Of a stretch of DNA of 64,000 nucleotides, positions 6,559 to 48,597 are shown piece after piece. Made by a program: the position numbers and the translations under genes. A model generated the notes under the pieces. That model worked only from the letters and a program-made list of their open reading frames with translations, ran no database searches and was not told the DNA's origin. Positions within the stretch are counted from its first letter, which is position 1, and each line of letters starts with the position of its first letter. The stretch is from Yeosuana marina (lineage in GTDB: Bacteria; Bacteroidota; Bacteroidia; Flavobacteriales; Flavobacteriaceae): the NCBI RefSeq assembly GCF_011762485.1, contig NZ_JAAKGI010000001.1:385962-449961 (forward strand), given 5' to 3'.

Positions 6559-6630
6559 GGCTCCATAGTTCAAGGGATAGAACAAAAGTTTCCTAAACTT
6601 TAGATCCAGGTTCGAATCCTGGTGGAGTCA
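6559..6630 (+). tRNA. tRNA-Arg (anticodon CCU)
   Basis: 72-nt cloverleaf. Acceptor GGCTCCA/TGGAGTC with one G-U pair. D-arm GTTC-AAGGGATA-GAAC. Anticodon arm AAAGT-TTCCTAA-ACTTT gives anticodon CCT. T-arm CCAGG-TTCGAAT-CCTGG. Discriminator A, no encoded CCA. Confidence 0.85.
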
Positions 6631-6670
6631 CAAAAAACGAATCTAGTTGATTTTTTAAAAACTATAAATT

Positions 6671-23249: not shown

Positions 23250-25754
23250 TTACTTTTTAATGGCTTTTTTGGTAATTACTGAACCATTAGATAATTCTAT
23301 TTTAGCAATGAATACAGCATTTTTTAGGTTGGCTAACTTATACGTTTCTATGTTATGACTTCCTTTTAATTGATATAATTGACGCCCTAACAAATCAAAA
23401 ATAGTCACTGTTTTAATGTTGAGGTTGTTAGATGCTTTAAAGCTTACATGCGTATCATCAATTTGCAAAATTTTTACCGTCGAGTTATCCAATTGAACGT
23501 CTGCCGTAGATAAGGTGTTACTAGCTTTAAATACAATTTGAAAACGGTCGTTAAACTCACCAACGTCTGATGTAAATGTATAATCGGAAGTTGATAAATC
23601 GTGTAAGATATTGGTAAGGTTGTCAAGTACATAGATGGTATTAGTACTTAAAAAATCACCTTGTAGTTTTGCTATAGACAAGGTGTACAGGGTGGGTACA
23701 TCAATTTGGGTGCTAAAACCAAGGTTTATAATTTCATCTTCATTTAAACTGCTTTCAGATTTACCTTGAATAGCAAACACTTTGTTTGACCCTTCAATAG
23801 TAGAGTATAAAATGGCAGCTTTACTACTGGAATTTTTTTCTGCATCAAAATAGGCACCATCGTAATTATTGGTAGCCCCTTTTGTATAGCCAATAAGAGT
23901 TTGATTAAACACACCGTTATCAGAGGTTAAATTGACCCAAAGTTTGTTTATAGTTGATGTTGATGTATAGGATTTTGTATTTGAATTTTTGAAAAACTGA
24001 CTATTATCTGAAGCACCTTTTACACGCATGGAGTTATTAAAAGTTACGTAGCCTTTCGCAATAGGTTGTCCCTCAGTATTAGGAGTGGTTGAAACAGGCG
24101 TAGCTAAATCAGACATTGTAATAAAAAACCCTTGTCCTGAAGGTATAAAGTCATTTGGTTGTTCGCCATCGCCACCAGCTACACCGCCCATTCCATTAAT
24201 GATGGCATAATCAGAATCAGAAAAATTACGATCTTCGTTACCATTTGCTATTGATGAAGGCGGTGTGTTTTGCGACCATAAATAGATGGCTCCATTTGTA
24301 TAAGGGTTTCCATTAATATCAGTTCCGCTACCATTTGTTGCTATCACCGTATTAGCAGCTAAAAATGAATTAGCATCAATAGCAGACGGATACGGATTAC
24401 CAATAAAATTAAAGTTTTCATCAGCTTTTTCAGAGTCATTTCTGTAAATAGGAACTGAAATAACACCATTATTAAAGGGCCCAGAAAATGTAAATTTGAT
24501 GTGTTTGTCTGAGGTTCCTGGAGCTGTACTATATGCGAATTCTGAAAGAGTAGCAGCATAACCAACACCACGTTTCATAACGTCAGTACCACTTACCAAT
24601 TGCCAGTCATCTCCATTATCATCAATACCATCTTGTCCAGTGCTTGCTGTGCCATCATTATTTGTTTCTTTCTTAACATCTAAATAATTTTGAGCATTAA
24701 ATGAAAAAATTCTAGTAGGGTTAGCATCACTTAAAGCAACTTGTATTTGTGGTTCAAAAACAGGGGAACTCCAATAGGTATATTCATACCAAGCATTTGT
24801 TGCTGCTGTTAGTTTTTCAACTTGAATTAAATTAGGGGTTGTTAAAACGGCACCACTAACGGTTGCATCATCATTAACTTGAACAAATGCTGCTTGTGGG
24901 TTTACAAGAATAGCTCCATCGACAACAACATCATTTTGTACTTCAATAAAAGTGTTGGAAAGAGCCCCATTAATAACATCATTAATTGATAATGTAGCAC
25001 CAGAATTAACTGTTAAACTGCACGCAGAAAAACTACCATAAGTAGCTGTGTCATAGTCAGCATCAATAGTTACAGAGGTATTCGCTGTCGGTGGACTAGG
25101 AATCCATCCTCCAGCAGTCCAAGTGGAGGAATTAAGACAACATGCTGCCGGTGCGTTTCCAAAACCTATCATATTTTGTCCATCTGCAATTTGAGTAAAT
25201 CTTGTGCTTGGGTCTGTCCAACCTGCAGTGTCCCCATCACATAAGCCATTTATAATTTGTAAATTATTACCTTCTGTTGATACACCTCCACCACTCCAGG
25301 CTGTAATAGGATCATCACCACAAGTTCCAAAGGCATCTTGTAACACACCACCTAAGTATAACTGTAAGGCATCATTACCGTTAAAATCGAAACCGTATTC
25401 TTTAATATCAGAGAGGTTAGTTCCGTTAGCGATTGCATAATCTGTTAAATTTTTTGTGCCAATTACCCAAACTTCATTTGCACGTAAAGTTCCACTTGTG
25501 ATTTCTGCTCCAGGGAAACCATCGGCACAAGGATATCCGTTTCTTCCAACATAAACTTGTAAATTATTTGTACCTGAAAAAGTAATATCAGAACCTGAAA
25601 TATTATAAATTTCAATACCTTTTGGAGTTGACCCAAATGAAGTCTCTATGTATTGACTAATAATTATTTGAGATTGCCCAAACCCAAAACTCACGGCAAA
25701 AAATAGTGTTAGTACTAGAGACAGGAATTTTATAGAAGTAATTTTTGTATTCAT
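23250..25754 (-). CDS. Secreted T9SS cargo protein, paralog B, with N-terminal lamin-tail-like (LTD) domain
   Basis: Signal peptide. IIISQYIETSFGSTPKGIEIYNISGSDITF resembles LTD. Core is shared with paralog A. C-terminal sorting domain ...IELSNGSVITKKAIKK. Confidence 0.65.
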   Translation of the reverse strand: MNTKITSIKFLSLVLTLFFAVSFGFGQSQIIISQYIETSFGSTPKGIEIYNISGSDITFSGTNNLQVYVGRNGYPCADGFPGAEITSGTLRANEVWVIGTKNLTDYAIANGTNLSDIKEYGFDFNGNDALQLYLGGVLQDAFGTCGDDPITAWSGGGVSTEGNNLQIINGLCDGDTAGWTDPSTRFTQIADGQNMIGFGNAPAACCLNSSTWTAGGWIPSPPTANTSVTIDADYDTATYGSFSACSLTVNSGATLSINDVINGALSNTFIEVQNDVVVDGAILVNPQAAFVQVNDDATVSGAVLTTPNLIQVEKLTAATNAWYEYTYWSSPVFEPQIQVALSDANPTRIFSFNAQNYLDVKKETNNDGTASTGQDGIDDNGDDWQLVSGTDVMKRGVGYAATLSEFAYSTAPGTSDKHIKFTFSGPFNNGVISVPIYRNDSEKADENFNFIGNPYPSAIDANSFLAANTVIATNGSGTDINGNPYTNGAIYLWSQNTPPSSIANGNEDRNFSDSDYAIINGMGGVAGGDGEQPNDFIPSGQGFFITMSDLATPVSTTPNTEGQPIAKGYVTFNNSMRVKGASDNSQFFKNSNTKSYTSTSTINKLWVNLTSDNGVFNQTLIGYTKGATNNYDGAYFDAEKNSSSKAAILYSTIEGSNKVFAIQGKSESSLNEDEIINLGFSTQIDVPTLYTLSIAKLQGDFLSTNTIYVLDNLTNILHDLSTSDYTFTSDVGEFNDRFQIVFKASNTLSTADVQLDNSTVKILQIDDTHVSFKASNNLNIKTVTIFDLLGRQLYQLKGSHNIETYKLANLKNAVFIAKIELSNGSVITKKAIKK

Positions 25755-36920: not shown

Positions 36921-37517
36921 TTGTTATTGTTAAACGATAATTTCATGAAAAAAGTAGCTTTAATTTTAAGATGGCTGATAATATTATTTTCTTTAAGATT
37001 GGTATATTTATTTGGCAGACAGATTTGGTATGTTATACAGAGTTATTTGAATGGAACAGTTGAGAAACATGTGTTTTTTGGAATTAAAATACCTGATGAT
37101 TTTACACAAACGGGATTTCTTATTGTTTCTGTTGTTAGTTGTGCTATTCTAATTTACTTGTTTTTTCTACTTTATGTTTTTAGAAAAGTTATTCAGGGTC
37201 TGATTAAAAATCAATTATTTATTTCTGAAAACGCTGAACAATTGGTTAAAATTAGTAAGGGACTTTTCTTTTTTGGTGTTGTGCTATTTTTGATTCAATT
37301 CGTATTAAGAATGACACAATCTTTTCCTGCGGTTGCTGTAAATAAGGGTTTAGCATATTCTGCGAGTTATGACTTAGGGTATAAAATTGGCGTAACTATT
37401 AATTTGTTACTATCAAATGGTTTCCCCATTTTTATATATGCTCTTTTTATCTTTATTATCGCCAAACTTATTAAAGAAGGGAATCTTTTAAAGCAAGAAA
37501 ACGACTTAACAATATAA
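36921..37517 (+). CDS. DUF2975-like multi-pass membrane protein
   Basis: Four predicted TM helices. Immediately followed (3-bp gap) by a small XRE HTH gene, the conserved DUF2975-HTH pairing. Confidence 0.5.
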   Translation: MLLLNDNFMKKVALILRWLIILFSLRLVYLFGRQIWYVIQSYLNGTVEKHVFFGIKIPDDFTQTGFLIVSVVSCAILIYLFFLLYVFRKVIQGLIKNQLFISENAEQLVKISKGLFFFGVVLFLIQFVLRMTQSFPAVAVNKGLAYSASYDLGYKIGVTINLLLSNGFPIFIYALFIFIIAKLIKEGNLLKQENDLTI

Positions 37518-37520
37518 CTC

Positions 37521-37727
37521 ATGTCAATATTAGTAAATCTGGATAATATGTTGGAAAAGCGAAACATGAAAAGCAACGAATTGGCTGATATTATAGGCAT
37601 TACAACCGCCAACCTTTCTATTTTAAAAACAGGTAAAGCAAAAGCCATTCGCTTTTCAACTTTAGAGGCCATTTGTATGGCGCTAGATTGCCAGCCAAGT
37701 GATATTTTAGAGTATGTTGAGGATTAG
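37521..37727 (+). CDS. XRE-family HTH transcriptional regulator (YozG-like)
   Basis: 68 aa. MKSNELADIIGITTANLSILKTGKAKAIRFSTLEAICMALDCQPSDIL matches the Cro/C1 HTH. Confidence 0.8.
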   Translation: MSILVNLDNMLEKRNMKSNELADIIGITTANLSILKTGKAKAIRFSTLEAICMALDCQPSDILEYVED

Positions 37728-37749
37728 TTTATGCTTTTTACCCTAAAAA

Positions 37750-38199
37750 ATGTACTTTTGGAATATTCTAAATATTCTCGCTATTATGAAAACCACCTTT
37801 TTTATGTTCCTGTTTTTTATTGTAAGTATGAGCTTTGCTCAGAACAATATCATTGTAAAAACAGATGATGGCAGACGTGTCTTACTTAAAGCAGATAATA
37901 CATGGGAGTATATAGATATGGAAAAGCCAGCTACTAATAACACATGTAATCTAGCCGAGGATTTTGTTGAACCCGAATTGAACAGTAAAATTCAATTGCA
38001 ATTAAAAAGGGGACGCGCCGCTATTGAGGATGTAAAGCAAAAAGTGGCTAACGATTATAATTGCGAAATATCAGATGTTATACTGATGTCGTTTAAAGAA
38101 CAAAAAGTAAAGGCCGTATACCATTTTTGTGCTAATGGCACTAAAGTAACCTATAAACGCACAGGCAATGCTATTATTAAGAGTCCTAAGCTTTTTTAA
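37750..38199 (+). CDS. Hypothetical secreted protein
   Basis: Probable start at the internal MKTTFFMFLFFIVSMSFAQ signal peptide. No recognisable catalytic motifs. Confidence 0.4.
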   Translation: MYFWNILNILAIMKTTFFMFLFFIVSMSFAQNNIIVKTDDGRRVLLKADNTWEYIDMEKPATNNTCNLAEDFVEPELNSKIQLQLKRGRAAIEDVKQKVANDYNCEISDVILMSFKEQKVKAVYHFCANGTKVTYKRTGNAIIKSPKLF

Positions 38200-38235
38200 A
38201 ACGATGATAAATTGTAGTTGAGTTTAATATAAAAG

Positions 38236-38826
38236 TTAATCTATATATTCAATTTTACCAGTTTCTCTATAGGCTGATTTATAAACCCACCTGTGGTTTC
38301 CTCTTATTCTAGCATCAAGTAAATCAATATTTAATTTTTCAGAAAGAGAAAAAGCTTTTTCAAAAGCTTCGTTGGAATCCTCTAGGGCAAATACCCTCAA
38401 AAATTTATTTTTTTTATACCATAGGTTTATTTCATAGCCACTATATGCATTAAAAACAGATATGTATTTCAGATCTTCTAAATTTTGCCATTTTTCATTA
38501 TAAGTGAAAATTCCAATTGAGTAACTATGCATTATTTTAAAATTAGAAAAATTAAAATGAATATAGTGTCTCGATATCAAGGGAAGAATAAAAACAATCA
38601 ATACCCCAAAAAGCCAAATTAAATGAAAAGTCACATTGGCAAGGTCTAAAGTGGTCAATTCATTAATAACATTATCGCTAAAAAAATAAATGATAAATGT
38701 TAAAAAAGCTGAAAATATAACAGAAAACAGGATACGATTGAACCAAGGTACTTTGGGCTCTCTTATTGTTAATTCTTTATCATACATCAAAACAAATGTA
38801 TGAAAACCATGTATTTTTAAAGCCAT
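38236..38826 (-). CDS. Hypothetical membrane protein (2 TM + cytoplasmic domain)
   Basis: Hydrophobic segments FSVIFSAFLTFIIYFF and LIWLFGVLIVFILPLI. No known motifs. Confidence 0.35.
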   Translation of the reverse strand: MALKIHGFHTFVLMYDKELTIREPKVPWFNRILFSVIFSAFLTFIIYFFSDNVINELTTLDLANVTFHLIWLFGVLIVFILPLISRHYIHFNFSNFKIMHSYSIGIFTYNEKWQNLEDLKYISVFNAYSGYEINLWYKKNKFLRVFALEDSNEAFEKAFSLSEKLNIDLLDARIRGNHRWVYKSAYRETGKIEYID

Positions 38827-38990
38827 TTACATTTAGTAGTTTGCAACAACTGTTACTCCTATTGCTGTTTTAAGCAATAACGATGGCTGTATGATTTCGC
38901 GAAGAGATTATTCTTTGCTATAAAGGACGTTGTCTTTCAGGTATAATGATGTTCTCAACCATAACATAAATATAAAAACGAGTTTTATTT

Positions 38991-40208
38991 TCACTGCCTC
39001 CTATTCGCTAAAAGCGGGGGAGGTTCTCCATTAAATGGATTCCATCTACTTATTGTTTTTGCTTCCATACCAGCTGCCGCTATAACAGCTCTGTCTCCAT
39101 AACGCTCACGCATTTTGTCTATAGCTTTACATAAATGAAGGTGTTTTTCGTCGTCTTCAAATAAATTAATTTGGTGCCCGCCTTCAACTAAATGGCTAAA
39201 CTTAACACCAATAAGTCTCACCAATAATCTACGATGATATAGTTTTTTAAATAAGTCTAAAACCACAGGCATAATAACATGATCCATAGAGCTATAGGGG
39301 ATATGCTGCTGCTGTGTATAGGTTTGAAAATCTGAATATCGAATTTTAAAAGTAACACAGGCTGTTAATTTATTGCCTCGGCGTAACTGATAGGCTAAGT
39401 TTTCGGTCATGGCAATAATGATGCTTTTTAGTTTAGCAATATCTGTAGTGTCCTTATTAAACGTGCGTTCTGTAGAAATAGATTTGCGTTCGTGATATTG
39501 TACAACAGGACTATTATCTATACCGTTAGCCTTTTTCCAAATGGATAATCCGTTTTTGCCAAGTACTTTGTGCATTAAATCCATAGGCATTTCTTGTATG
39601 GTTTTAATACGTTTTACACCTAAATCGCATAAAGATTTATAAGTAACTTCGCCAACCATTGGGATTTTTCTAACGGAAAGTGGTGCTAAAAAAGGCTTTT
39701 CGGTACCTGTAATAATCCTGATTTCATTGTTGGGTTTCGCTTCTCCCGTTGCTATTTTAGAAACGGTTTTGTTAACAGATAACCCAAAGGAAATTGGTAA
39801 TCCTGTTTCTTTTATGATGCGTTGGCGTAACTCGGATGCCAATTTGTGGCATCCAAAAAACTTATCCGTTCCCGTAAGATCAATATAGAATTCATCGATA
39901 GAGGTTTTTTCGTATATGGGTACGTTTTCTTTAATAACATCGGTAACGTCTTTTGAGAAATTACTATAAACCCCAGAATTTCCACGAAGTACAATAGCTT
40001 CAGGGCAAAGCATTTTTGCCATACGCATGGGCATGGCAGAATGGATGCCAAAGGTTCTGGCTTCATAACTACAAGAAGCCACAACACCTCTATCGCTTGT
40101 ACCGCCAATAAGTATGGGTTTACCTATTAAACGACTATCAAGCAAGCGCTCGCAAGACACAAAAAAAGTATCCAAATCCATGTGTACTATGGCACGTTCG
40201 TTACTCAT
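38991..40208 (-). CDS. dinB: Y-family DNA polymerase (DinB/Pol IV-like, catalytic residues intact)
   Basis: HMDLDTFFVSCE (the HxDxDxFF motif), SIDEFYIDLT (SIDE), KIPMVGEVT and ISTERTF resemble Pol IV. The start abuts the dnaE2 stop. Confidence 0.8.
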   Translation of the reverse strand: MSNERAIVHMDLDTFFVSCERLLDSRLIGKPILIGGTSDRGVVASCSYEARTFGIHSAMPMRMAKMLCPEAIVLRGNSGVYSNFSKDVTDVIKENVPIYEKTSIDEFYIDLTGTDKFFGCHKLASELRQRIIKETGLPISFGLSVNKTVSKIATGEAKPNNEIRIITGTEKPFLAPLSVRKIPMVGEVTYKSLCDLGVKRIKTIQEMPMDLMHKVLGKNGLSIWKKANGIDNSPVVQYHERKSISTERTFNKDTTDIAKLKSIIIAMTENLAYQLRRGNKLTACVTFKIRYSDFQTYTQQQHIPYSSMDHVIMPVVLDLFKKLYHRRLLVRLIGVKFSHLVEGGHQINLFEDDEKHLHLCKAIDKMRERYGDRAVIAAAGMEAKTISRWNPFNGEPPPLLANRRQ

Positions 40209-43200
40209 TTACAATGTTTTTATAATGTTATGTTTTCTTCTTGATAGAAATTTTGGCGATGGGTCGCTATATCTTGGGTCTTGTATAATAGGTAGTTTTG
40301 CCATAGCTCTCACTTCGATAGTAATGCAATCAAACTCTTCTATAACTTTACCTGTTATTTTATAAATTCCTCTGCCTCTAAAAGGAAATTTTGATGCTAC
40401 GGGCGGAAAGTGAACCGTGTCTATAAAGTCACCATCACAATCTAAAAAAGTACCGAAATGCATTATTTTTCCGTTTGATGTTGCGGTGTTTTTGGTAGTA
40501 ATTAAATAGCCTTCGATACTAACCGTTTTACCAATGTATTTTATGAGGTCTTCGGCTTTAAGCGTGCATTTTAATTCAGTTTCCAGTAATTCAAAAGGAC
40601 TACAAAGTGGGAATCCTAGTAGTTCGATAGCATCGAAAGCATTTTCTAAATAATCACTAGGGAGCTGGGGTGTTTTATAATGTAGTTTTTCAGTTTTAAA
40701 TAAGGTCATAATAGGATCTTCAATAGACACTTTACTAATTTTTAAATGAGCTTCCCAAAGCAATTCACGCTTGTTGATTGTTGTAAATCGAAAGGCATTA
40801 ATCTTTATGAGGATAGAAATTTGCTCTACCGATATAGGAACACGGTCTATAAAATCGTCTAGACTTTTAAATAAACCATTTTTTTGACGTTCTATAAGTA
40901 GTTTTTTTATGATTCTTGCTTCTAATGCATGTAAAAACATAAAGCCTAAATAAATAGTTTTTCCTTTGATAATGGTTTCATTAAAACTCTGGTTAATGCA
41001 AGGAGCTTCAATAATACCACCATGCATTCTGGCTTCGTGCACATACAATTCTGTGTTATAAAACCCACCAAAATTATTAAGGGTTGCAACCATATATTCT
41101 AACGGATAGTAGGCTTTTAAAAACAGACTTTGATAGCTTTCTACAGCATAAGAAGCCGAGTGGCCTTTAGCAAAGGCATAGCCTGCAAAACTTTCTGTTT
41201 GTCGCCAGACTTCTGCTGTGAGTGCTTCGGACTTTCCGCTTTTTTTGCAGTTATCAAAAAAAAGTTGTTTTACTGCTAAAAACTCGTCACGAGAACGAAA
41301 CTTACCAGACATGCCGCGGCGTAATTTATCGGCTTCACCTAAAGTTAATCCACCAAAAATATGAGCTACTTTTATAACATCTTCTTGATATACCATAACG
41401 CCATACGTTTCTGGCATAATGCTAAGTAAAACGGGATGTGCATTTTTTATACGTTCGGGGTAGCGGTAACGCAAAATGTATTCGCGCATCATGCCCGATT
41501 TGGCTACTCCTGGCCGAATGATGGAACTGGCAGCGACCAACCCTAAATAATGATCTACTTGTAATTTTTTAAGAAGCATACGCATGGCTGGAGATTCTAC
41601 ATAAAAACACCCGATAGCTTTGGCATTTCTTAGTAAATCTTTAATACGTTCATCTTGTTTGAAACGCTTAATATCATGAATATCAATAGGTGCTTTTTCA
41701 GGATGGTTATATTTGACAATATCTACCGTGTCTTTAATTTTTCCTAGGCCTCGCTGACTTAAAATATCAAATTTATAGAGTCCAATGTCTTCAGCTACAA
41801 TCATATCAAAGTGTGTGGTAGCATAGCCTTTTGGAGGCAAAAACGTGGCGGTGTAATAATGAATGGGTTTTTCCAAAATAATAATACCGCTGGCATGAAT
41901 ACCCAAATAATTTGGAAACCCTTGAATATATGAGCTGTATTTAATTACTAATTGGGATAATTTGTCTAATTGATGTATGTTGTATTTGCCACGCGTTAGA
42001 ATATCCATTTCGGCTTTTGGTAAGCCAAAAACTTTACCTAATTCTCGTACTGCAGCTCTAAATTTAAAAGTGTTATAAACGGTGAGTAAAGCCGTGTGTT
42101 TAAATCGACTAAAAATATAATCGGTAATGTCGTCTCTATCTGTCCATGAAAAATCAATATCAAAATCGGGTGGATTTTTTCGATATAAATTAATAAACCG
42201 TTCAAAATAAAGGTCGAGTTCTATGGGGTCTACGTCAGTAATTCTTAGTAAATAAGCAATAATACTGTTAGCTCCACTACCACGGCCTACATAAAAATAA
42301 CCTTTGCTTCGGGCGTATTTTAAAATTTTCCAGTTGATTAAAAAATAAGAGACAAACCCTTTTTGTTTTATAATTTCAAGTTCCTTTTCAATACGACTAT
42401 AAATAATGTCGTCTGGATTTTTATAGCGATAATTCAGATTTTTGTAGGTTAGTTTTTTTAGTAACCTAAAATCTAAAGCTTCATTATTTGTGTACGATTT
42501 TTGGTTATTTGGTATTTCTTGCGAAAAATCAAATGCAATATGACACTCATTTAAAAGGGATGACGTGTTTTTAAGAAGTTCTGGAAATTCCTGATAGATA
42601 CCACATAATTCATCATATGGTAACATCTTATCCGTTTCCTTGCCTTCTTCACTTTTTGGAAGCTTGCTTAATAAAGTATTATTGTCAATAGCACGTAATA
42701 ACCGATGGGTGTTGAATCCTTTTTTATTTTCAAAAGTAACCGTTTGTAAAACCACTAATTTGTTTTGTAGTTTGGACCATTTAGAGAACTTAAAATGATT
42801 AAGGTCTTGAGGTTTGATGCCTATAAATTCATTAGGCTTTAACTGATAGTTTTTGTGATGTATATAGGGGTAAATAACAAAAGTGTCTTCTAATTCTGGT
42901 GCTATATCAGGAATGCTTAAATTGGAGTCATGTAAAAATGCAGACAGGTATTCGTTAATATTTTTAAAGCCATTATTGTTTTTTGCAAGGAGGATGAATT
43001 GTTGCTGCGCACCATTTCTAAAATCGACACCTAGTACAGGTTTAATACCATATTTTTCAGATAACCTTACAAAGTCCAAACATGAAGACGTATTGTTAAT
43101 GTCGGTCAACGCTAATGTTTGTATGCCATTTTCAGAAGCCATAGCAAGTAATTGTTCTGGCTTTATGGTGCCATAACGTAAACTATAATATGTGTGGCAA

Positions 43201-43211
43201 TTAAGATACAT
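40209..43211 (-). CDS. dnaE2: Error-prone DNA polymerase III alpha paralog (DnaE2/ImuC-like)
   Basis: 1000 aa. N-terminal PHP domain (CHTYYSLRYGT). Pol III alpha core motif GRGSGANSIIAYLLRITDVDPIELDLYFERFIN. Its length fits DnaE2 rather than DnaE1. Confidence 0.8.
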   Translation of the reverse strand: MYLNCHTYYSLRYGTIKPEQLLAMASENGIQTLALTDINNTSSCLDFVRLSEKYGIKPVLGVDFRNGAQQQFILLAKNNNGFKNINEYLSAFLHDSNLSIPDIAPELEDTFVIYPYIHHKNYQLKPNEFIGIKPQDLNHFKFSKWSKLQNKLVVLQTVTFENKKGFNTHRLLRAIDNNTLLSKLPKSEEGKETDKMLPYDELCGIYQEFPELLKNTSSLLNECHIAFDFSQEIPNNQKSYTNNEALDFRLLKKLTYKNLNYRYKNPDDIIYSRIEKELEIIKQKGFVSYFLINWKILKYARSKGYFYVGRGSGANSIIAYLLRITDVDPIELDLYFERFINLYRKNPPDFDIDFSWTDRDDITDYIFSRFKHTALLTVYNTFKFRAAVRELGKVFGLPKAEMDILTRGKYNIHQLDKLSQLVIKYSSYIQGFPNYLGIHASGIIILEKPIHYYTATFLPPKGYATTHFDMIVAEDIGLYKFDILSQRGLGKIKDTVDIVKYNHPEKAPIDIHDIKRFKQDERIKDLLRNAKAIGCFYVESPAMRMLLKKLQVDHYLGLVAASSIIRPGVAKSGMMREYILRYRYPERIKNAHPVLLSIMPETYGVMVYQEDVIKVAHIFGGLTLGEADKLRRGMSGKFRSRDEFLAVKQLFFDNCKKSGKSEALTAEVWRQTESFAGYAFAKGHSASYAVESYQSLFLKAYYPLEYMVATLNNFGGFYNTELYVHEARMHGGIIEAPCINQSFNETIIKGKTIYLGFMFLHALEARIIKKLLIERQKNGLFKSLDDFIDRVPISVEQISILIKINAFRFTTINKRELLWEAHLKISKVSIEDPIMTLFKTEKLHYKTPQLPSDYLENAFDAIELLGFPLCSPFELLETELKCTLKAEDLIKYIGKTVSIEGYLITTKNTATSNGKIMHFGTFLDCDGDFIDTVHFPPVASKFPFRGRGIYKITGKVIEEFDCITIEVRAMAKLPIIQDPRYSDPSPKFLSRRKHNIIKTL

Positions 43212-43233
43212 GTAGATTTTTTAAACAAAAATA

Positions 43234-43273
43234 ACTACAAATAGTAGTTTTTGTTGCTTATATTTGTAGCAAT
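43234..43273. promoter_or_regulatory. Candidate operator region in the divergent dnaE2 / lexA-like promoter
   Basis: AACTAC-AAATA-GTAGTT (43234..43250). TTGCT-N9-AGCAA (43255..43273). Nested 9-bp inverted repeat CTACAAATA...TATTTGTAG (43236..43244 and 43262..43270). Confidence 0.4.
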
Positions 43274-43295
43274 TAATGTTAAAAATTGAGATAAG

Positions 43296-44066
43296 ATGAC
43301 GCCTATTCAGATTAACATAAAACACTTAAGATTGTTAAAAAAGCTTTCTCAAGAACGTTTTTCAGAAGAACTGAAATGTACACGTTCGATGATTGGATCT
43401 TACGAAGAAGGTCGCTCCGAGCCTCCAATAGAGAGGCTTATAGACTTGTCAAACTATTTTAATATCCCTATTGATATTTTAGTTAAGAATGATTTGAGAT
43501 TGGCAAAAGACACGTCATTCATAGAAATAGGGAGTAAGCGCGTATTATTTCCCATTACAGTTAATGAAAATAACGAAGACCTTATTGAAATTATTCCTGC
43601 ACAAGCGTCAGCAGGTTATTTAGCTGGTTATGCAGACCCTGAATATATAGAGCAATTACAAAAAATTAAATTACCTTTTTTACCTACGGGAACTCATCGT
43701 GCTTTTCCGATAAAAGGCGACTCTATGTTACCCGTAAAAGATGGATCTTTTATTGTAGCCAAGTTTGTTGAAGATATTCAAGACATTAAAAATGGGAGAA
43801 CCTATATTGTTTTAACTAAAGATGATGGTCTAGTTTATAAGCGTGTTTATGATAAAGATGCGGATACTTTAATTTTGAGTAGTGATAATAGATTTTATAA
43901 TCCTTACGAAGTTAAAAAAGATCAAATTTTAGAATTATGGGAGTTTACCTGTTGTATAAATACGCAAGAGTATAAAGCCGAAGAATTAAAACTGAGCAGT
44001 ATTATGAATATGTTTCAAGAATTAAAAGTGGAATTGGAATCCATAAATATTCAGAATAAACCTTAA
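43296..44066 (+). CDS. LexA-like repressor (XRE HTH + S24 peptidase)
   Basis: N-terminal HTH (LSQERFSEELKCTRSMIGSYEEG). C-terminal S24 autoprotease motifs are GDSM (Ser) and LVYKRV (Lys). Confidence 0.8.
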   Translation: MTPIQINIKHLRLLKKLSQERFSEELKCTRSMIGSYEEGRSEPPIERLIDLSNYFNIPIDILVKNDLRLAKDTSFIEIGSKRVLFPITVNENNEDLIEIIPAQASAGYLAGYADPEYIEQLQKIKLPFLPTGTHRAFPIKGDSMLPVKDGSFIVAKFVEDIQDIKNGRTYIVLTKDDGLVYKRVYDKDADTLILSSDNRFYNPYEVKKDQILELWEFTCCINTQEYKAEELKLSSIMNMFQELKVELESINIQNKP

Positions 44067-44126
44067 ATTTCTATACCTTTAAAACAATTTAAAAAAGATA
44101 TTTGTTGTTACAAGAACGATGAAAAT

Positions 44127-44567
44127 ATGATACGACATAACGCTAAACCGCTAACTTTCTTTACTCCAGATGATAGTGATAATTCAGGAGCTTTTTTCTT
44201 TGATACAGGGATTTCTGCAGGATTCCCGTCACCTGTCGACGATTTTAGAGAAGAACGACTATCTTTAGACAGCATACTTGTTAAAAATAAACTAGCGACG
44301 TTCTATGCACGCGTAAGTGGTCAATCTATGATTGGTGCGGGACTAGACGATAACGATTTGTTGGTTATAGATAGAAGTCTAGAACCTACAAACAATAAAA
44401 TAGCCGTTTGCTTTTTGGATGGAGAATTTACGGTAAAACGTTTAAAAGTAGATAAAGATGAGGTTTGGCTACAACCAGAAAACCCTGATTATCCTATTAT
44501 AAGAATTACGGAAGACAATGATTTTCTTATTTGGGGGATTGTTACCAATGTAATAAAGAGGGTGTGA
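44127..44567 (+). CDS. umuD: UmuD-like S24 autopeptidase (translesion polymerase accessory subunit)
   Basis: 146 aa, no HTH. GFPSPVDDF...LDSILVKN...ATFYARVSGQSMIGAGLDDNDLLVIDRS...DGEFTVKRL aligns closely with E. coli UmuD (CGFPSPAADY...[27 protein letters not shown]...DGEFTVKKL). Confidence 0.75.
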   Translation: MIRHNAKPLTFFTPDDSDNSGAFFFDTGISAGFPSPVDDFREERLSLDSILVKNKLATFYARVSGQSMIGAGLDDNDLLVIDRSLEPTNNKIAVCFLDGEFTVKRLKVDKDEVWLQPENPDYPIIRITEDNDFLIWGIVTNVIKRV

Positions 44568-44684
44568 TTTTTATGTTTAAGTAAATCCATAGAATCTCTT
44601 TAATATGGAAAAAACATAGTAAATCACAACAACACATTTAGACTAGTTGTTTGTGAAACTATAACACATAAACGAGGAACTCAA

Positions 44685-45167
44685 GTGGATGCTTACCCTG
44701 AAATCATACTTACAAGTGCTGAATCTTACTTTTTACAGGCTGAAGCAGTTGTTAGAGGTATAGAAACAGGGGATGCTCAAGCGTTATTTGCATCTGGTAT
44801 TGTAGAGGCCATGAAATTATGGAATATTTCTACGGGTGATGCTGAAACTTATATTGCTAATTCATCTATTGCTGATATTTCAGCGGGTACTATGGATGAA
44901 AAATTAGAAAAAATAGCATTACAAAGATGGTTGAATGCTTACACAGATGGATTCGAAGGCTGGGCAGTAGTTAGAGATACAGGATATCCTTCAGAATTAT
45001 ATGCTGGTGTATCAAATCCTACAATTTTCGCATTAGGTAACTTGAACGGCGCTTATCCTCAAAGATTACGTTATGGATCTAGTGCACAAGCAAATCCAAA
45101 TTTTGCTGCTGCAGTTTCTGCTCAAGGAGCAGATGTACAGGCAACAAAATTATGGTTTGCAAAATAA
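44685..45167 (+). pseudogene. C-terminal remnant of a SusD/RagB-family gene
   Basis: Only 160 aa with a GTG start. ...LQRWLNAYTDGFEGWAVVRDTGYP...ATKLWFAK is a typical SusD C-terminus. There is no upstream susC, and an in-frame stop lies 84 bp upstream with no SusD-like sequence. Confidence 0.55.
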
Positions 45168-45192
45168 TCATATAGTATAAAGTTTAGTTTAT

Positions 45193-45229
45193 AAAAAGAG
45201 GTTGAACACGTGTCAACCTCTTTTTTTAT
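45193..45229 (+). terminator. Intrinsic terminator (perfect palindrome AAGAGGTTGAACACGTGTCAACCTCTT + T7)
   Basis: 10-bp GC-containing stem followed by TTTTTTT. Confidence 0.6.
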
Positions 45230-45308
45230 TTATTTCATTCAAGAAAGATTTTGAAAACTAAATCATATGAAAATTGATAATTATAAATGCATAAAATAAT
45301 CAAAGAAT

Positions 45309-46649
45309 ATGAGCAACGATACAACAATACCATCATCAAAAAACAACACATTAGTTCCTATTTTAATTATTGCTGGGCTATTTTTTATTTTTGGCTTTGT
45401 AACATGGATTAATGGTGCGTTAATTCCTTTTATGAAAACTATTAGTGAATTAACATCAGCACAATCATTTTTAGTAGCCTCAGCATCCTATATCTCTTTT
45501 GTTGTGATGGCACTTCCGGCATCTTATATTTTATCGAAAATAGGCTATAGAAAAGGAATGTCGTTAGGACTGTTTATAATGGCATTAGGTGCATTGGTAT
45601 TTATTCCAGCAGCTGAAGCTAGAACGTATTGGATGTTTCTCTCAGGAATATTTATTCAAGGAGCAGGAATGACTTTGTTACAAACGGCCTCAAACCCTTA
45701 TATTACTATATTAGGTCCTATTGAAAGTGCTGCAAAGCGTATTGCCATTATGGGAATAGCCAATAAGGTAGCAGGCGCATTAGGATCTTTAATTTTTGGT
45801 ACAATTTTGTTATCTGGTATCGATGAAATTAAAGAGAAATTAAGTACCGTTACAATTTCTGAAAAAGGACAATTACTAGATACTATGGCCGATAGTGTTG
45901 TAACACCTTATATAGTTATGACCGTTGTTTTGATTGTATTAAGCCTATTGATATTAAAAGCGCCTTTACCCCATGTTGAAGCTGAACCCATTGAGGAATC
46001 AAAGGATGGAACAACGTCGAAAACGAGTATTTTTCAATTCCCTCATTTATGGTTAGGGGTTTTAACCTTGTTTATGTATGTTGGGGTTGAAGTTATTGCT
46101 GGAGATACTATTATAGCTTATGGAATTTCTTTAGGAATACCCGCTGCTGATGCTCGTTTTTTTACAACCTTTACATTAATGGCTATGGTAGCCACGTATG
46201 CTTTGGGAGCTATTTTAATTCCAAAATTTATTAGTCAAACTACAGCTTTAAAAGCAAGTGCCGTAATTGGTATTGTCTTCTCAATATGCATTGTATTTAC
46301 AACAGGGTATACATCCGTTTTATTTGTTGCTGCTTTAGGAGTGGCAAATGCACTAGTTTGGCCTGCGGTATGGCCCTTAACGTTAAAGGGCCTTGGTAAG
46401 TTTACAAAAACGGCTTCTGCCTTGTTAATAATGGCTATTTCAGGTGGAGCAATAATTCCGCCGTTATACGGAAGATTGGTTGATGGTAATAAAGCAGATT
46501 TAATTGCGCAAGGCATGAATGATATTTCAGCAGCTGCTGAAGCCGCAACGAGTGGATATTGGATTTTGCTACCTTGTTACTTCATCATTTTATACTATGC
46601 TATTTGGGGCCATAAGCTAGGGTTAAAAGTGAAAAGTAGTGTATTTTAA
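45309..46649 (+). CDS. MFS sugar:H+ symporter of the fucose/glucose-galactose permease (FHS) family
   Basis: 446 aa, 12 TM. The N-terminal region (GLFFIFGFVTWINGALIPFMK...LQTASNPYITILGP) is typical of FucP/GluP. Confidence 0.8.
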   Translation: MSNDTTIPSSKNNTLVPILIIAGLFFIFGFVTWINGALIPFMKTISELTSAQSFLVASASYISFVVMALPASYILSKIGYRKGMSLGLFIMALGALVFIPAAEARTYWMFLSGIFIQGAGMTLLQTASNPYITILGPIESAAKRIAIMGIANKVAGALGSLIFGTILLSGIDEIKEKLSTVTISEKGQLLDTMADSVVTPYIVMTVVLIVLSLLILKAPLPHVEAEPIEESKDGTTSKTSIFQFPHLWLGVLTLFMYVGVEVIAGDTIIAYGISLGIPAADARFFTTFTLMAMVATYALGAILIPKFISQTTALKASAVIGIVFSICIVFTTGYTSVLFVAALGVANALVWPAVWPLTLKGLGKFTKTASALLIMAISGGAIIPPLYGRLVDGNKADLIAQGMNDISAAAEAATSGYWILLPCYFIILYYAIWGHKLGLKVKSSVF

Positions 46650-46661
46650 AAAGTTTGATGC

Positions 46662-46695
46662 AAAAAAAATGCCAAGCTATGCTTGGCGTCTTTTT
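46662..46695. terminator. Bidirectional terminator between the MFS gene and atpC
   Basis: AAAAAAAAT-GCCAAGC-tat-GCTTGGC-GTCTTTTT. Confidence 0.55.
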
Positions 46696-46712
46696 ATATT
46701 TTATAAAATACA

Positions 46713-47006
46713 TTAGTCTGCTAAGACAATAACTTTATTGTCTTTCATTTCTATTGTTCCAGAATTAATCTTAACCGTTAGTACTTTTTTATCATCAAAA
46801 TGAGGAATTACTTCACCGTGAAGATGATCAAAGTCTAAATGGCTTTGAGAGTGCGTTTTAATTTTAACAGTTCCCTGTTTTAAAAGCGATACAATTGGAG
46901 CGTGATCTTTTAACATTTCAAACTCACCATTAACTCCAGGAACAGATACAGAATCTACTTCTGAACTAAATATGGTTGCTTCTGGTGATACAATTTCTAA
47001 ATACAT
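46713..47006 (-). CDS. atpC: F0F1 ATP synthase epsilon subunit
   Basis: 97 aa. LEIVSPEATIFSSEVDSVSVPGVNGEFEMLKDHAPIVSLLKQGTVKI pattern. Confidence 0.85.
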   Translation of the reverse strand: MYLEIVSPEATIFSSEVDSVSVPGVNGEFEMLKDHAPIVSLLKQGTVKIKTHSQSHLDFDHLHGEVIPHFDDKKVLTVKINSGTIEMKDNKVIVLAD

Positions 47007-47085
47007 ATTTCTTATTAGTTGTTAGTTGTGGATTGTTTGTTGTCTGTTTTAACTAAAAACTATCAACGAATAACCATTAACCAAA

Positions 47086-48597
<1,512 letters not shown>

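Follow-up and report, generated by a model that had tools for sequence, protein, structure and literature searches.

A four-gene SOS mutagenesis locus of Yeosuana marina as the probable Flavobacteriaceae version of the Bacteroidetes DnaE2-PolY module

Does the locus at positions 38991 to 44567 of a 64,000-nucleotide stretch of the Yeosuana marina genome (contig NZ_JAAKGI010000001.1, positions 385,962 to 449,961; hereafter the window) represent a new kind of mutagenesis system, or a variant of one already described? The locus joins a pair of polymerase genes, dnaE2 and polY, to a LexA-like repressor gene and to umuD, and the initial annotation of this DNA had read it as a compact SOS-type mutagenesis island with an unusual architecture. 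We regard it, with a probability of about 0.72, as the form that the SOS mutagenesis module of Bacteroidetes takes in Flavobacteriaceae, the attached umuD being the only mildly unusual part of the locus.

Four genes in two divergent units, with gaps of 84 bp and 60 bp, had been proposed, and the open reading frames (ORFs) lie exactly there:

38991-40208, minus strand: polY, 405 amino acids (aa), a DinB-like Y-family polymerase of the Bacteroidetes PolY2 type
40209-43211, minus strand: dnaE2-like paralog of the polymerase (Pol) III alpha subunit, DnaE2B type, 1000 aa, first gene in the dnaE2-polY operon
43212-43295: divergent control region, 84 bp, separating dnaE2 from the lexA-like gene
43296-44066, plus strand: non-canonical LexA gene, 256 aa, HTH_3 plus S24 autoprotease
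44067-44126, plus strand: lexA-umuD spacer, 60 bp
44127-44567, plus strand: umuD, 146 aa, S24 autoproteolytic accessory subunit of the Pol V type

Profile searches against Pfam and NCBIfam left the proposed identities standing, with matches to IMS/IMS_C, DNA_pol3_alpha, HTH_3 and Peptidase_S24. In the ORF list, the stop codon of dnaE2 directly abuts the first codon of polY, with 0 nt between them. No imuA (a RecA/SulA-like gene) was seen among the ORFs and Pfam matches between 38236 and 45167, in agreement with the earlier statement that there is no imuA, and the 64-kb window holds no second Y-family gene.

PolY contains the Pfam domains IMS (E=2.5e-43) and IMS_C (E=2e-26) and passes the NCBIfam DinB equivalog model PRK02406 (DNA polymerase IV) with 273 bits against a cutoff of 256. 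Its residues D11, D13, steric-gate F15/F16, D105 and E106 align with the catalytic motifs of Escherichia coli DinB (IHVDMDCFF and SLDE), which bears out the claim that this Y-family enzyme retains the DinB motifs, and these motifs are kept in orthologs. From these residues, PolY is predicted to be a catalytically competent, DinB-like polymerase. Two motifs lie in the C-terminal tail, QINLF for the beta clamp (aa 346-350) and the RecA-NT-like AIDKMRERYG (aa 362-371), and both are kept in orthologs; the protein ends 55 aa past the clamp motif, and no extra domain was detected in it. PolY is 99% identical to the Yeosuana marina protein named 'DNA polymerase IV' and shares 86-93% identity with its orthologs from many genera of Flavobacteriaceae.

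The alpha paralog comprises the Pfam domains PHP, DNA_pol3_alpha, finger and HHH_6. Its PDFDIDF and KFDIL motifs align with the catalytic aspartates of E. coli alpha, and these Asp residues vary little or not at all among orthologs; the protein is accordingly annotated here as a predicted, catalytically competent polymerase. The DnaE models matched by it span 1146 positions, more than its 1000 aa, and of the NCBIfam models it passes just one, that of the superfamily, TIGR00594. No tau-binding C-terminal region was detected in it, no test having been aimed at that region.

To assess conservation, we ran tblastn with the four window proteins in a scan with one genome per species, which yielded 80 loci from 80 species. 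dnaE2 is followed by polY in 77 of these species loci, the other three being cut short or without a clear dnaE2 match, and the pair is kept in 79 loci in all; the gene order that had been singled out, dnaE2 and then polY, was seen at the window and in all loci examined. The distance from the dnaE2 stop to the polY start lies between -14 and +18 nt in 61 of 77 loci, and the two genes are translationally coupled. Comparison of gene order across Flavobacteriaceae placed the divergent lexA-like gene in 73 of the 77 assessable species loci, so that a three-gene core of lexA, dnaE2 and polY is kept in these. Because the arrangement recurs in dozens of species, it is not a chance juxtaposition. The fourth gene is much rarer: of the 80 species loci, just 9 have umuD behind lexA (among them L013, L025, L026, L033, L035, L039, L046 and L049), and 71 are without it. 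A Y. marina contig (L001) has the same four genes in the same order, and counting the window and L001, the lexA-linked umuD copies number 10. Tamlana fucoidanivorans CW2-9 (NZ_CP074074.1) and Algibacter sp. R77976 (NZ_CP138989.1) are complete genomes with this lexA-umuD linkage.

The same survey bears on whether the block of four genes arrived recently as a mobile mutagenesis island, be it on a prophage, an integrative and conjugative element or a transposon. Such an origin would suit the CI-like character of the repressor, as well as the comparison with L001, the closest genome, where similarity is lost no more than 6 bp from the polY stop and again some 100 bp downstream of umuD. The composition and setting of the locus argue otherwise. 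The cassette has the same guanine-cytosine (GC) content as its surroundings, and no terminal or flanking direct or inverted repeats were found around the four-gene block. No integrase, transposase or transfer RNA (tRNA) gene was seen nearby among the ORFs and Pfam matches, an Rfam scan of the window returning a single tRNA at 6559-6631. Where genes neighbouring the window cassette were detected in other loci, the cassette lies between the GntR-type regulator/DUF2975/HTH_26/DUF3157 genes at its polY end and atpC-atpD at its lexA end; these neighbours recur in many genera, and divergence of the cassette tracks that of housekeeping genes. We rejected a mobile element on the absent terminal repeats and the absent GC anomaly and consider it highly improbable. 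The cassette is a core chromosomal feature of the family, and the label 'island' had to be dropped, given the ordinary GC content, the missing terminal repeats and a chromosomal position that is recurrent across genera.

The 256-aa repressor combines HTH_3 at aa 8-62 (E=1.5e-12) with Peptidase_S24 (E=6.3e-9), and the NCBIfam LexA model TIGR00498 gave no match to it. It shows a LexA-like cleavage site at Ala106-Gly107 and a dyad of Ser143 and Lys182. Among 71 LexA-like orthologs, the motif SAGY is present in 69, and GDSM and VYKR are each present in all 71. Beyond the S24 match the protein continues for about 45 aa. At the level of sequence, it belongs to the published non-canonical LexA family (PMC8565304). 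Its gene is divergent from dnaE2 across the 84-bp region, and the view that one LexA-like repressor would serve both units was judged correct.

Promoters of Bacteroidetes carry a -7 element with the consensus TAnnTTTG, and the control region contains two divergent copies of it, with the main palindrome between them:

43226-43233, minus strand: predicted dnaE2-polY -7 box TAnnTTTG, read on the minus strand as TATTTTTG; 57 of 71 loci have such a box on this side
43235-43247: predicted main operator, a perfect palindrome CTAC-AAATA-GTAG (CTACAAATAGTAG); half-sites conserved across loci
43257-43269: predicted second, imperfect operator CTTA-TATTT-GTAG (CTTATATTTGTAG); nearly invariant across loci
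43259-43266, plus strand: predicted lexA -7 box TAnnTTTG, TATATTTG, present in 71 of 71 loci and overlapped by the second operator

Alignment of the intergenic region from 71 loci gave a nearly invariant core, TT[G/A]CTACAAATATAAGCAA-N4-AACTAC-N5-GTAGCTAATTTTG. The main palindrome is perfect in 62 of the 71 loci, and its 5-bp spacer takes 12 different sequences; conserved half-sites around a variable spacer are the signature of a dyad operator. The two operator centres lie 22 bp apart. By chance, 0.29 matches to the main palindrome would be expected per window. No further intergenic CTAC-N5-GTAG occurs within the window; its sole other copy (25033-25045) is located inside an 834-aa ORF (23250-25754; LTD / Por_Secre_tail) and is probably a chance match. 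A sigma-70 promoter scan, with 16 promoter-like sites against 25 expected, was uninformative, as Bacteroidetes promoters differ. The predicted main operator shares its dyad-N5-dyad layout with the CTAA-N5-TTAG and TTAC-N5-GTAA sites bound in experiments (PMC8565304), and no exact copy of the published CTAA-N5-TTAG or GGA-N5-TCC is present in the 84 bp. The imperfect site resembles CTACAAATTTAAG and CTACAAATATTAG, two entries of the published CTAA-N5-TTAG collection (PMC8565304).

As a separate observation, five related loci (L009 and L012; L073, L075 and L081) carry an insert of 150-300 bp that separates the conserved operator/-7 box from the start codon of dnaE2. Different species share almost the same insert, a pattern suggestive of small, repeated elements resembling miniature inverted-repeat transposable elements (MITE-like) that landed in the dnaE2 leader.

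How would such a locus work? The following picture of DNA binding, self-cleavage, induction and assembly of the complex draws on homology to relatives studied by experiment. The non-canonical LexA would bind, most likely as a dimer, to CTAC-N5-GTAG and probably also to the imperfect site 22 bp away. Seated between back-to-back promoters, bound LexA would repress both its own transcript, probably lexA-umuD, and the divergent dnaE2-polY. Upon DNA damage, RecA filaments would prompt LexA to cleave itself at Ala106-Gly107, and both units would be derepressed. The dnaE2-polY operon would then supply a putative, translationally coupled two-polymerase mutasome of the DnaE2B-PolY-RecA type, in which DnaE2B and PolY presumably assemble with RecA on the clamp through the motifs of PolY. 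umuD, most likely co-transcribed with lexA, would be induced along with it.

This leaves the question of what umuD does behind lexA. The 146-aa protein passes the NCBIfam UmuD model NF007621 (158 bits, cutoff 110), and its best solved relative is E. coli UmuD. It contains a cleavage site at Ala31-Gly32 together with Ser67 and Lys104. The description of a small S24 protein close to E. coli UmuD is upheld by the model match and by an alignment over the full S24 domain, catalytic dyad included. The gene had also been called uncoupled from any adjacent umuC, and this proved right as well: tblastn of the window with a flavobacterial UmuC matches only polY, and neither the 64-kb window nor the stretch of about 8 kb around each of the 80 cassette loci yielded a umuC.

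Close homologs of this UmuD (79-84% identity) are found in umuC-umuD operons of Flavivirga, Winogradskyella haliclonae, Lacinutrix, Algibacter sp. PT7-4 and two further contigs, the window protein being 83-84% identical to the umuC-linked UmuDs of relatives. The UmuC proteins of these operons have IMS, IMS_C and DUF4113 domains. The operons occupy the same chromosomal slot as the cassette, between the DUF2975/HTH_26/DUF3157 genes and atpCD. umuC lies in that slot in all six genome contigs found via close UmuD homologs (L083, L084, L087-L090). At 27 UmuC-anchored metagenome loci, umuC is followed by umuD wherever the sequence is long enough, the slot is the same wherever the flanks are recognisable, and no lexA or dnaE2 was found nearby. 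Between the window and Flavivirga, DNA synteny comes in three blocks, HTH_26/DUF3157, umuD and atpCD, and skips the cassette; at umuD, homology begins 3 nt before the ATG. The 60-bp lexA-umuD spacer holds no remnant of umuC, no palindrome and only a -7-like box with one mismatch (GATATTTG).

The slot therefore appears in three states, namely umuC-umuD, polY<dnaE2<>lexA, and the cassette plus umuD, and the window is the third of these, with the cassette in place of umuC. The origin of its umuD is mundane, as the gene occupies a slot where relatives hold umuC-umuD. A 'full' locus, with lexA-umuC-umuD beside dnaE2-polY, was found in none of the 80 genome loci, 6 UmuD-anchored loci and 27 metagenome loci.

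The slot itself, which corresponds to window positions 36921-48594 and was followed in loci L083, L084, L087-L090 and L094-L113, alternates in content inside individual genera as well, Winogradskyella and Algibacter among them, and umuC-umuD and the cassette were never seen in it together. We found no description of this alternation in the literature consulted. A canonical CTAAAACATTTAG site (CTAA-N5-TTAG) is present upstream of umuC in Winogradskyella haliclonae (L084, 5665-5677), and the umuC promoter of Flavivirga (L083) contains none of the tested palindromes.

The slot history would fit a umuD that is merely a leftover of a umuC-umuD operon, non-functional and not yet degraded, after displacement of umuC by the cassette. 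The loss of umuD from most cassette loci (71 of 80 species loci) agrees with this, and so do the spacers upstream of umuD, which are unrelated among lexA-umuD loci. The genes themselves tell against decay. All 10 lexA-linked copies are full length, with Ser, Lys and the Ala-Gly cleavage site (Cys-Gly in one) intact. In the UmuD tree they are polyphyletic and spread over several genera, which indicates an old or recurrent state with the gene intact each time. The ratio of nonsynonymous to synonymous substitution rates (dN/dS) is 0.03-0.11, at saturated dS, between pairs of lexA-linked umuD genes and falls in the same range as for umuC-linked pairs. Such low dN/dS indicates that umuD is maintained by selection, and we consider a decaying leftover improbable.

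Selection of this kind would equally be expected if Pol V were intact. UmuD could then be a conventional Pol V subunit whose umuC lies elsewhere, a rearrangement having put umuD behind lexA, where it would still be SOS-regulated and unrelated to PolY and DnaE2. Pseudalgibacter alginicilyticus offers a natural example of a split Pol V: umuC sits in the ancestral slot without umuD (L118/L119), and an intact umuD stands alone between TonB-dependent receptor and penicillin amidase genes (L085/L086). Tamlana sp. 2201CG12-4 possesses both the cassette (L064) and a UmuC (P0311), and the 83-84% identity of the window protein to umuC-linked UmuDs points in the same direction. On the other side stand the missing umuC in the 64-kb window and in the roughly 8 kb next to each of the 80 loci with the cassette, and the fact that the umuC slot of all six contigs and of every metagenome locus with recognisable flanks is the very slot occupied here by the cassette. 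In addition, among the best 120 matches listed, no named UmuC homolog comes from a lexA-umuD species, which is weak evidence. A conventional Pol V subunit is a serious contender, even if we would give it clearly less than even odds.

Our preferred reading, somewhat closer to even odds, is a UmuC-independent role in which UmuD would act as a polymerase manager on PolY and/or the alpha paralog. Two reports describe E. coli UmuD as modulating DinB and binding Pol III alpha (PMC3901139, PMC3799427), which makes such a role plausible. A more specific version is speculative and, we think, unlikely: UmuD' would be recruited as a small regulatory subunit of the DnaE2B-PolY(-RecA) mutasome in lexA-umuD Flavobacteriaceae, possibly without umuC, to give a hybrid of the Pol V and ImuABC types. 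The slot would then switch between umuC-umuD and dnaE2-polY-lexA, and the window would be a functional chimera.

Several points weigh against reading the locus as a Bacteroidetes SOS module with UmuD as its co-induced companion. The RecA-NT match of PolY is weak, the tail aligning with DUF4113 positions 3-27 at E=0.051 and 14 bits, below cutoff; detection of this motif took profile-profile searches in the source papers (PMC6511836, PMC12926913). The alpha paralog scores higher against the DnaE model (496 bits) than against the error-prone DNA polymerase model NF004225 (421 bits, cutoff 939) and passes neither cutoff, the name DnaE2 being owed to the published classification. The predicted operator CTAC-N5-GTAG differs from the published CTAA-N5-TTAG by one base per half-site, which makes LexA binding an extrapolation, and only the imperfect neighbouring site, not the best palindrome, resembles the published site list (PMC8565304). 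Co-transcription of lexA and umuD is deduced from a 60-bp gap with no terminator in it, and the same scan found no terminator (0) anywhere in the region. For this organism the mechanism draws on homology, and the UmuC-independent role of UmuD is a conjecture. The unlinked umuC and umuD of P. alginicilyticus and the coexistence of cassette and UmuC in Tamlana sp. 2201CG12-4 count here as well, and a distant umuC may be present in this genome, our view of which spans the 64-kb window.

The flanks of the four-gene block show features of their own. The window and L001 are 97-98% identical at the DNA level up to 6 bp past the polY stop (38985). Beyond polY (38203-38984), the window has a 196-aa ORF, whereas L001 has 4.2 kb with rubrerythrin, a two-component system and DUF2231. 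Similarity ends again about 100 bp past umuD (44667), where L001 continues with nagB/PIG-L, LytTR and GH92 rather than atpCD. Both breaks mark the flanks of the block as rearrangement points between close strains.

Further out on the polY side (36921-37727), a gene for a DUF2975 membrane protein is followed 3 bp on by one for a 68-aa HTH_26 (Cro/C1-type) regulator; the HTH_26 gene, plus the DUF2975 gene where detected, recurs beside the polymerase slot in many related loci. On the other side, between umuD and a gene for a major facilitator superfamily (MFS) transporter, a 160-aa ORF (44685-45167) matches only the C-terminal third of a SusD-like profile (298-414 of its 415 positions). The ORF has no SusC gene upstream and is followed by a 16-bp hairpin at 45190-45228, and no counterpart was detected in the related loci examined. 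It looks like a truncated susD remnant.

What the window adds is a clean example of the module with a phylogenetically footprinted, predicted operator, CTAC-N5-GTAG, that is unlike the two published motifs. Its comparative value lies in a single Flavobacteriaceae slot that holds either Pol V genes or a DnaE2B-PolY cassette, with some lineages, including that of the window, retaining under selection a UmuD that has no UmuC next to it. Should genomes of this kind truly lack umuC, they would lend themselves to the study of how UmuD functions independently of UmuC and how DnaE2B-PolY is regulated. The lexA-umuD linkage and the slot shared by alternative modules form the only non-textbook element for which we found no description in the literature consulted.

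Among known systems, the closest to the polymerase pair is the one reported by Timinskas & Venclovas in 2019, a Bacteroidetes system of 'two apparently active polymerases' that pairs a PolY2-group enzyme with a RecA-NT-like motif with DnaE2, without ImuA/ImuB-C (PMC6511836); its representative is Cellulophaga algicola ADV50500.1. A 2026 survey in Nucleic Acids Research named it DnaE2B-PolY-RecA and placed it among conserved association modules that its authors report as AlphaFold-supported (PMC12926913). The window shares with it the Bacteroidetes host, an adjacent and apparently active alpha paralog and, at the level of the locus, the absence of ImuA, ImuB and ImuB-C. The two differ in that neither paper mentions a UmuD partner, whereas umuD here follows the divergent repressor gene, as in 9 of the 80 species loci.

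The regulator finds its counterpart in the HTH_3+S24 non-canonical LexA described by Sanchez-Osuna et al. in 2021, which is restricted to Bacteroidetes and binds GGA-N5-TCC or CTAA-N5-TTAG (PMC8565304). In that family, a penta-helical PF01381 HTH replaces the winged-helix LexA_DNA_bind, and a terminal alpha-helical segment follows S24; paralogs have diverged palindromes such as TTAC-AAATT-GTAA. Binding was demonstrated by electrophoretic mobility shift assay (EMSA) and induction with mitomycin C, in one tested case with a divergent error-prone polymerase gene, and DinB homologs were noted to be 'often associated with' a Pol III alpha (COG0587) gene in an operon (PMC8565304). With the L2 group of this family the window shares HTH_3+S24, the Ala-Gly/Ser/Lys residues, a tail after S24 (about 45 aa here) and a dyad-N5-dyad palindrome, here a predicted operator, in the repressor's own promoter, and its divergent lexA/polymerase layout is that of the E. 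anophelis case tested by EMSA and reverse-transcription quantitative PCR (PMC8565304). The regulators of Winogradskyella and Tamlana, both cassette carriers here, are labelled group L2, motif M2, and WP_158846825 and WP_159018609 (P0076 and P0103), PolY orthologs with 88-89% identity, are listed as DinB homologs in the supplementary table of the same work (PMC8565304).

The canonical ImuA-ImuB-DnaE2 (ImuC) cassette of Proteobacteria and Actinobacteria likewise co-expresses a Y-family protein and a second C-family polymerase under SOS control, and its Y-family partner has clamp-binding and RecA-NT motifs, to which the clamp motif and the weakly matching RecA-NT-like motif of the window PolY correspond. 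In contrast to PolY, which is intact and has no ImuB-C, canonical ImuB is catalytically dead and has ImuB-C; the canonical cassette includes imuA, absent here, and has the reverse gene order, and its alpha paralog is of the DnaE2A group rather than the DnaE2B group of the window. With E. coli Pol V, the window has in common a UmuD alignable over the full S24 domain, with conserved cleavage site and catalytic dyad, and an SOS-type repressor, but it has no adjacent umuC. The Flavobacteriaceae operons place umuC before umuD, the reverse of the order in E. coli. Measured against the proteobacterial and actinobacterial textbook, the architecture is indeed as unusual as the initial annotation claimed. 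As a novelty the claim does not hold for the three-gene core, kept in 73 of 77 loci and already published (PMC6511836, PMC12926913, PMC8565304): the lexA<>dnaE2-polY core is largely the described Bacteroidetes system, conserved across marine Flavobacteriaceae.

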